Shown: positions 34,518 through 34,570 of the stretch, one piece after another
Layout: each line of letters begins with the position of its first letter
Numbering within the stretch: the first letter of the stretch is position 1
NCBI RefSeq assembly: GCF_988242995.1
Contig: NZ_OZ547043.1
DNA length: 64,000 nt
Direction: 5' to 3' (one strand)
Translations under genes and position numbers: made by a program
The notes under the pieces: generated by a model
What the model saw: the letters and a program-made list of their open reading frames with translations, nothing else
Told to the model about the DNA's origin: nothing
Databases searched by the model: none

Positions 34518-34570
34518 ATAGAATACATCGATCGTTACTATCATATCGATCGTTATAAACGATCATTTGT
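34518..34570 (+). promoter_or_regulatory. candidate regulatory region: three GATC sites within short direct repeats upstream of the dynamin-like operon
   Basis: catcGATCgttactatcatatcGATCgttataaacGATCatttg; GATC at 34530..34533, 34548..34551, 34561..34564; AGGAAGG RBS follows at about 34612. Confidence 0.35.

Follow-up and report, generated by a model that had tools for sequence, protein, structure and literature searches.

Gene content and GATC sites of the locus

The window analysed here is the whole stretch of 64,000 nucleotides (nt) from contig NZ_OZ547043.1 of the NCBI RefSeq assembly GCF_988242995.1, and the element under study is a cluster of three GATC sites, the targets of Dam, in front of an operon that begins with a dynamin-like GTPase gene. 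On the left the cluster is flanked by a yeeP-like GTPase gene (33536–34408, plus strand), a conserved neighbour of this switch-like element that is named 'GTPase family protein' in Escherichia coli strain 165 and gives Era/Der-type GTPase matches. On the right stands the first gene under the putative switch, that of a dynamin-family GTPase (34626–37022, plus strand), a CrfC/RdcA (YjdA) paralog matched by NCBIfam CrfC and called 'dynamin family protein' in RefSeq. Within the intergenic gap of 217 base pairs (bp) from the yeeP-like stop (34408) to the dynamin ATG (34626), GATC-I occupies 34530–34533, GATC-II 34548–34551 and GATC-III 34561–34564 (no strand assigned), with spacings of 18 bp (I–II) and 13 bp (II–III), and each of the three is invariant in 11 dynamin-linked alleles and in agn43-type alleles. 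Direct observations cover the cis elements themselves, the homology that links them to the agn43 switch, and how they are conserved and distributed; these are described in turn.

An earlier note on this DNA had reported three GATC sites within 35 bp, some 60–100 bp before the operon start codon, and both statements were borne out, the sites at 34530, 34548 and 34561 having a total span of 35 bp and lying 62–96 nt upstream of the ATG at 34626. Its description of a repeated motif around the GATC sites held in part: the direct repeat ATCGATCGTTA (11 nt) is present in two exact copies at sites I and II (34527–34537 and 34545–34555, spacing 18), whereas site III carries only a partial copy in this allele (ACGATCA), at a place where most other genomes show CGATCGTT.

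The clustering of GATC sites was rejected as evidence in itself, since the window holds 210 GATC sites in total and a uniform model gives 1.03 expected triplets of ≤35 bp, with P(≥1) = 0.63. A tighter triplet, three sites in 21 bp (59649–59669), is found in the hisB coding sequence, where it is made up of Asp, His, Gln and Ile codons, and it thus serves as a negative control indicating that GATC triplets do arise by chance. Because clustering alone is not significant, the case for a switch rests on the context of the triplet, and this context (intergenic place, match to the OxyR consensus and agn43 register) is, as read from the sequence, far beyond chance. A chance GATC cluster without function would agree with the roughly one such triplet expected per 64 kilobases (kb) and with the second example in hisB, but it is scarcely credible beside the agn43 register homology, the unique OxyR score and the cross-lineage conservation reported below, and it can be regarded as effectively refuted. 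Upstream of the triplet a stretch of 2.9 kb (31620–34529) is free of GATC. A second GATC-free stretch of 5.5 kb lies at 38705–44225, and the dynamin operon itself has normal GATC density. Depletion of GATC in mobile elements has been described for ST131 (PMC4659465), and the GATC-free stretches around the switch and the operon fit that description.

Homology to the agn43/cah switch

The region was aligned with the yeeP–flu region of K-12 and with the yeeP–cah/ag43 regions of O157:H7 and two other strains. The three GATC sites, the predicted −10 and −35 elements and the 17-bp spacer were all in register with K-12 agn43/flu and O157 cah, the TAATAGAAT and TATCGATCGTT blocks of the core were likewise in register with agn43-type switches, and blastn with a 76-nt query retrieves agn43/cah switches. 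Differential levels of identity were observed along the region: the yeeP 3' ends are 90–97% identical to yeeP upstream of flu/cah, identity drops to 28–52% from the yeeP stop to the −35 element, the 50-bp core from −10 to GATC-III is 72–78% identical to agn43-type switches, and the leader, 62 nt past GATC-III, is 36–43% identical to agn43 leaders. The earlier note had named alignment against the agn43 regulatory region as a check, with a lack of similarity as its refutation; the similarity is present, with GATC sites, −10, −35 and spacer in register. The position of the flu switch, which it had also proposed, was confirmed, K-12 having yeeP–isrC–flu and the window having the dynamin operon in flu's stead. 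Of the two origins it had left side by side, inherited or evolved, inheritance fits better with a homologous, diverged lineage whose core is 72–78% identical, and evolution de novo fits less well.

By its sequence, the element is a complete but diverged copy of the agn43-type switch that forms a distinct lineage with new cargo. It shares with agn43 (flu)/cah the slot directly downstream of yeeP in CP4-44-type islands, the homologous −35, 17-bp spacer and TAGAAT, a single OxyR consensus match that holds three GATC and the 13-bp distance between GATC-II and GATC-III; by homology, this match would also lie over the transcription start. The two differ in the GATC I–II spacing (18 bp here, 19 bp in agn43-type switches), in the match to the OxyR consensus (16/20 here, 13–14/20 in agn43/cah), in the length of the leader past GATC-III (62 nt here, about 190 nt in agn43) and in the strong intrinsic terminator with which isrC of K-12 closes, immediately ahead of the start codon of flu, and which the window leader lacks. 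They differ also in cargo, which is a surface adhesin autotransporter in agn43/cah and, here, a dynamin-like/RdcB-like/patatin-like operon of cytoplasmic and membrane-acting products; with a dynamin-family GTPase gene downstream of the switch, this is not an Ag43/Cah autotransporter locus.

Predicted promoter, start site and leader

The predicted −35 element TTGCGT (34496–34501, plus strand) aligns with TTGTCC in K-12 and TTGCGT in O157, and the predicted −10 element TAGAAT (34519–34524, plus strand) lies inside the invariant TAATAGAAT and is the same in all dynamin-type and agn43-type copies, with the −35 placed 17 bp upstream of TAGAAT in all compared copies. The K-12 pair (TTGTCC-17-TAGAAT) was recovered as a promoter-like site by a promoter scan. 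The first nucleotide of the annotated K-12 leader RNA isrC is the G of GATC-I, which lies 6 nt past TAGAAT, and the TAGAAT-to-GATC-I geometry of the window is identical; by homology to this isrC/agn43-leader RNA, transcription is therefore predicted to start at about 34530 (plus strand), the G of GATC-I. Direct reading of the sequence gives a short leader (34565–34625, plus strand) with a Shine-Dalgarno sequence AGGAAGG at 34612–34618. In this leader the terminator scan revealed no counterpart of the K-12 leader terminator (L001:2979-3006), and an Rfam scan of 34300–34800 returned chance-level matches only, with no IsrC match.

In the predicted fold of the 5' untranslated region (minimum free energy −23.9 kcal/mol, z = −2.0, with 7 of 200 shuffles as good), the leader segment CCTCCTCC at 34580–34587 pairs with the Shine-Dalgarno sequence, and this pairing, as modelled, may constitute a translational control layer. 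Such control bears on a rival explanation in which Dam methylation is read by another factor (SeqA, or a direct effect on the promoter) or in which the operon is controlled at the RNA level, by a GATC-II/III hairpin or by pairing of CCUCCUCC with the Shine-Dalgarno sequence. A terminator-like hairpin at 34548–34564 and the sequestering of the Shine-Dalgarno sequence in the leader fold (z = −2.0) are in keeping with RNA-level control, but the hairpin is weak (seven pairs, three of them G-C, and a poor T run) and is simply the dyad of an OxyR half-site, the z-score is marginal given the shuffles that fold as well, and the homology to the agn43 operator and the OxyR consensus would be left unexplained. 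This explanation as a whole is given very little probability, and these controls could instead be additions to an OxyR-based switch.

Predicted OxyR site

Every 37-mer on both strands was scored against the classical OxyR consensus, ATAGnTnnnAnCTAT-N7-ATAGnTnnnAnCTAT, with 20 specified positions; the usual dyad form, reportedly that of Toledano et al. 1994, was used for scoring. As quoted in PMC2909390, the consensus has its last element printed 'CATAT'. The top match in the window on either strand is the predicted tetramer site ATCGATCGTTACTAT-CATATCG-ATCGTTATAAACGAT at 34527–34563 (no strand assigned), which matches 16/20 positions, the next best reaching 13, and the intergenic region holds no second OxyR-consensus site of ≥14. 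By the same scoring the homologous K-12 agn43 site reaches 14/20 and the O157-type sites 13/20, while in the window plus 1.48 megabases (Mb) of fetched E. coli-like DNA a score of 16/20 was reached only by copies of this switch and a score of 15/20 by three unrelated sites only.

The 18-bp GATC I–II spacing turns the first OxyR half-site into ATCGATCGTTACTAT, which by hand count matches 8/10 specified positions against 6/10 in K-12. GATC-I and GATC-II lie wholly inside the predicted site, which also takes in all but one base of GATC-III and extends from about −3 to +34 when counted from the homology-predicted start near 34530. By its consensus match, 34527–34563 is predicted to be the single OxyR site that holds the GATC cluster, and its place over the predicted start would reproduce the repressor geometry described for agn43. 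A recurrent 37-mer, ATGTGTTTGATCTCTCTTATATATTTATAATACCAAT, with an OxyR score of 14/20 and one GATC, was observed separately in many island contigs of metagenomes (such as L054:411 and L081:10829).

Conservation of the GATC sites

For the cross-lineage test, seven copies were retrieved without any requirement for GATC, namely four dynamin-type copies, O157 cah, 602354 ag43 and K-12 flu. From the −10 element to GATC-III, 19 of 29 non-GATC columns are variable against 0 of 12 GATC columns (hypergeometric P = 8e-5), and comparison of the window with K-12 alone gives P = 0.011 for GATC against other core columns. The 11 distinct dynamin-type alleles sampled from complete genomes all have three GATC sites with the 18/13-bp spacing.

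Distribution and cargo of the two switch types

Out of 5,426 complete E. coli genomes, 1,983 cover at least 80% of a 281-nt query that runs from the end of yeeP through the intergenic region into the start of the dynamin gene, and 1,984 cover the 76-nt core alone; it follows from the near-identity of these counts that essentially every copy of the 18-bp variant sits between yeeP and a dynamin gene. The carriers include CFT073 (PAI-aspV), ST131, SMS-3-5, O145:H28 and ATCC 25922, and the OxyR/GATC core of CFT073 PAI-aspV is identical to that of the window. In CFT073 (L015 16266-18663) the dynamin gene behind the intact switch is annotated as frameshifted, as is the yeeP-like gene upstream.

A pattern scan of one genome per species yielded only a copy in Citrobacter amalonaticus and one E. 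coli-like contig. In the copy of C. amalonaticus ku-bf3 (L008 9-977), which lies outside Escherichia, an agn43-type switch with 19-bp spacing stands after a yeeP-like gene. Among viral contigs the pattern matched one chimeric contig, IMGVR_UViG_2534681766_000003 (L019 640-2065), in which an ag43-type switch with about 125 nt of leader is fused not to ag43 but to lambdoid prophage genes, DUF968/HNH-like and then antiterminator Q-like (identified from translations by eye); the fusion is apparently a recombination junction.

At least 120 switch copies were detected in metagenome contigs. Among the metagenome matches listed, all 20 of 20 copies with 18-bp spacing precede a dynamin open reading frame (ORF), about 60 nt on, and none precedes Ag43, whereas the 19-bp type is followed by Ag43/Cah, about 200 nt on, in 97 of 97 resolvable copies; among these same matches to a GATC-requiring pattern, no cargo other than Ag43/Cah or dynamin was seen. 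Because the 18-bp type was always found with dynamin and the 19-bp type always with Ag43/Cah, the distribution indicates that the switch exists as two stable lineages, each linked to a cargo of its own. A third layout, yeeP–switch(19)–cah–dynamin, is present in O157:H7 (L004, Z1486, 3897-8061) and was seen in 2 of 59 ag43-type loci among the listed matches. The O157:H7 dynamin N-terminus is 97% identical to that of the window, and the 110-bp gap between cah and dynamin is unrelated to the window leader and shows no promoter- or terminator-like site, so that transcription of cah may run on into the O157:H7 dynamin operon, which would then be phase-variable together with cah.

The O157:H7 layout is also the starting point for a second rival explanation, in which the element is a relic: loss of the autotransporter gene from an O157:H7-like yeeP–switch–cah–dynamin island would have stranded its agn43/cah promoter, which would persist by linkage, its selected regulatory role gone. 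Loss of cah from an island whose dynamin is so closely related could yield the present layout, and conservation within the dynamin-type lineage is statistically indistinguishable from neutrality. A recent agn43 deletion was nevertheless rejected, since the core shows only 72–78% identity to every agn43-type switch compared, and neither the leader nor the upstream intergenic sequence can be aligned, so that the element is no recent deletion scar; nor was there homology upstream of the start codon between the window leader and the O157 cah–dynamin intergenic region. The relic explanation is further opposed by the retention of the −35, the spacer, the −10 and the three GATC sites together with an improved OxyR consensus, by the switch being the only promoter-bearing DNA before the operon in the 1,983 genomes, and by the strict tie of the 18-bp type to dynamin cargo among the metagenome matches listed, and it appears decidedly improbable.

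Genes of the operon and its neighbourhood

The dynamin ORF has 798 codons and encodes a full-length CrfC/RdcA paralog, scoring 558 bits, under the equivalog cut-off of 1146. Its stop is overlapped by 4 nt by the start of a gene for an RdcB/YjcZ-family protein (37019–37924, plus strand; Pfam YjcZ, E = 4.7e-70, and named so in RefSeq), which is in turn overlapped by 4 nt by a gene for a patatin-like phospholipase (37921–38991, plus strand; RefSeq name, with weak RssA/CBASS-lipase N-terminal matches). Two genes for secreted hypothetical proteins follow, the fourth (39127–39810, plus strand) interrupted and the fifth (39826–40236, plus strand) matching phrog_8968; both are probable operon members, by analogy with a co-regulated five-gene cluster reported for strain MP1 (PMC12922286). 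In the fourth gene a TAG (39613–39615) stands in place of the TGG (Trp163) of strain 165 and cuts short a secreted protein of 227 amino acids. In its intact form this protein contains a CKAHTC loop and weakly matches Pfam Ivy (lysozyme inhibitor); at E = 0.11 the Ivy-like assignment was not adopted and is kept as a lead.

An identical locus is present in E. coli strain 165, with genes for the GTPase, the dynamin, the RdcB-family protein, the patatin-like phospholipase and two hypothetical proteins, and it continues there with DUF932, antirestriction, yeeS, yeeT, cbeA, cbtA and yeeW, followed by tmaR–yeeA–sbmC. The island in the window has the chromosomal position and the backbone of the K-12 cryptic prophage CP4-44. 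A PADLOC search of the operon gave a weak, partial LeoBC match (E = 2.7e-5, 21.5 bits) and no LeoA match; an Eleos (LeoA/LeoBC) or CBASS assignment was rejected on account of these weak matches, and the operon was taken as a CrfC/RdcA–RdcB paralog pair with a patatin-like gene. The yeeP-like GTPase (33497–34408 in this search) also gave a weak PADLOC LeoBC (dynamin-like) match, E = 1.2e-5, which hints that the GTPase upstream of the switch is a distant member of the dynamin superfamily.

Proposed switching mechanism and expression evidence

In agn43 a single OxyR repressor site is bound unless it is methylated, methylation abrogating the binding (PMC2909390; PMC3764049), and a dam mutant is locked OFF whereas Dam overproduction locks the gene ON (PMC2909390). 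From the arrangement of the window we infer a start site, OxyR binding, sensitivity of that binding to methylation, and bistability of a corresponding kind. A sigma-70 promoter (−35 at 34496, 17-bp spacer, −10 at 34519) would start transcription at about 34530, and the single OxyR tetramer site at 34527–34563 would overlap this start and hold the three GATC sites. When the GATC sites are unmethylated, OxyR would bind, block RNA polymerase and shield the sites from Dam, giving an OFF state that is passed on as the DNA is replicated; methylation of the sites by Dam once the replication fork has passed would instead exclude OxyR and let the operon be transcribed, giving an ON state that is inherited as well. 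The population would accordingly be mixed, and only some of its lineages would make the first three operon products (dynamin-like GTPase, RdcB/YjcZ-like protein and patatin-like phospholipase) and, probably, the two small secreted proteins. A functional phase switch responsive to Dam and OxyR that drives the dynamin-like operon is judged to be probable from these sequence features, and the agn43-type interpretation of the earlier note is supported to the extent that a register alignment and an OxyR match above that of agn43 itself can support it.

Expression data from a related cluster seem to bear on this interpretation. In a 2026 transcriptome of the mouse commensal E. coli MP1, a five-gene dynamin/RdcB/phospholipase cluster homologous to the operon is the most strongly differential between the isogenic strains MP13 and KP7 in any medium, these strains being separately derived and differently tagged derivatives of MP1; its authors state that the regulation of such dynamins is undescribed, offer no regulator and ascribe the difference to a prophage (PMC12922286). 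Clones fixed in different phases are a documented pitfall in comparisons of agn43 expression (PMC3764049), and by analogy the MP1 expression gap might represent clones fixed in opposite phases, for which the case is circumstantial. In the literature searched, no paper was found in which this operon is connected with phase variation, Dam, OxyR or GATC, an earlier remark in subscription agn43 papers being possible, and the locus is not mentioned in the main text of methylome papers on ST131, UTI89/CFT073, O145 and O111.

Several points weigh against a working switch. The −35 element is weak (3/6), and the promoter as a whole (8/12) falls under the threshold of the simple scan. OxyR binding tighter than in agn43 could weight the switch strongly towards OFF, and the 18-bp spacing displaces GATC-I by 1 bp within the first OxyR half-site, which may matter for sensitivity to methylation. 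Within the dynamin-type lineage alone, 27 of 217 intergenic columns are polymorphic with none in GATC, which is not significant (P ~ 0.2) because this lineage is too shallow, and 1 of 5 polymorphisms in the OxyR site falls at a consensus-specified position, which is not significant either (P ~ 0.12, hand calculation); neither within-lineage test is counted as evidence. The degenerate pattern scans of genomes, viral contigs and metagenome contigs required GATC, so copies without it were not detectable by them. As regards MP1, the expression difference could be caused by a prophage, as its authors propose, and the presence of the switch in MP1 is presumed from the related island of CFT073, where it was confirmed.

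Some of these points lead to a third rival explanation, an OxyR operator without heritable switching, in which either OxyR or Dam always wins and the element is a locked switch or a plain operator. The higher OxyR match (16/20 against 14/20 in agn43) and the 1-bp displacement of GATC-I are compatible with it, as is the finding that the balance of affinities decides whether agn43-type systems switch (PMC2909390). The fixation of all three GATC sites across lineages while most of their neighbours vary would, however, be hard to explain if methylation were irrelevant, and the MP1 operon is strongly on and off in isogenic strains (PMC12922286). A locked switch or plain operator, which with the relic is one of the two main rivals, is considered unlikely, and the Dam/OxyR phase switch is retained as the favoured interpretation.

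Comparison with other Dam-dependent switches

Salmonella/phage P22 gtr and opvAB use Dam and OxyR as trans factors, as proposed here, with GATC sites inside OxyR half-sites and methylation blocking OxyR (PMC2909390; PMC4856963). These systems have four GATC sites in two pairs, and their promoter is preceded by 3–4 OxyR half-sites, among which OxyR takes different positions as activator or as repressor (PMC2909390). The window differs in having three GATC sites, one full predicted OxyR site over the predicted start and a geometry suited to repression only, which is not of the gtr/opvAB type. In phage Mu mom, OxyR represses when a three-GATC cluster in its site is unmethylated, and this site lies upstream of the promoter; mom is not known to be phase-variable, and no sequence homology between mom and the present element is known. 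The element and mom both have a three-GATC cluster in an OxyR site, which is upstream of the promoter in mom and, as predicted, over the start here. The control of mom by Dam and OxyR is mentioned in PMC2909390.

In pap, Lrp sites contain two GATC boxes separated by 102 bp, and PapI is needed in addition to Lrp and Dam (PMC2909390). The pap-family Lrp/Dam pili switches share with the present proposal a heritable ON/OFF state set by Dam against a DNA-binding protein at GATC sites. The window is not of the pap type: its GATC spacings are 18 and 13 bp, there is no other GATC within 2.9 kb upstream, and no papI- or papB-like gene is adjacent.

Implications

Dam/OxyR phase variation in E. coli is textbook knowledge for a single gene family, the Ag43 adhesins. 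The present locus raises the tentative possibility that CP4-44/YeeP-type islands have a phase-variable expression slot after yeeP that takes two cargoes, either Ag43/Cah or the dynamin/RdcB-like/patatin module for membrane remodelling, the latter a candidate for a bet-hedged anti-phage or otherwise costly function. If true, this would be the first Dam/OxyR-controlled phase-variable system in E. coli that is not a surface antigen, and about 37% of sequenced E. coli, among them CFT073-like, ST131 and Shiga toxin-producing E. coli (STEC) lineages, would have a dynamin/phospholipase operon under this switch. Epigenetic bistability would then extend beyond surface antigens to a module that is a candidate for defence or membrane stress, probably as a form of bet-hedging.

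The operon is predicted to be expressed only in a heritable subset of cells, and existing long-read methylomes of many carrier strains bear directly on this prediction. The switch would also explain the puzzling 'strain-specific' expression of dynamin operons in transcriptomes, and comparisons of isogenic transcriptomes or proteomes would show large spurious differences at the locus, of which the MP1 study (PMC12922286) is maybe one case. The two natural versions of the switch, which differ in GATC spacing (18 or 19 bp), in OxyR match (16/20 or 14/20) and in the absence or presence of a leader terminator, would represent a natural experiment on switching rates, and as such would bear on how operator strength and GATC placement set them.

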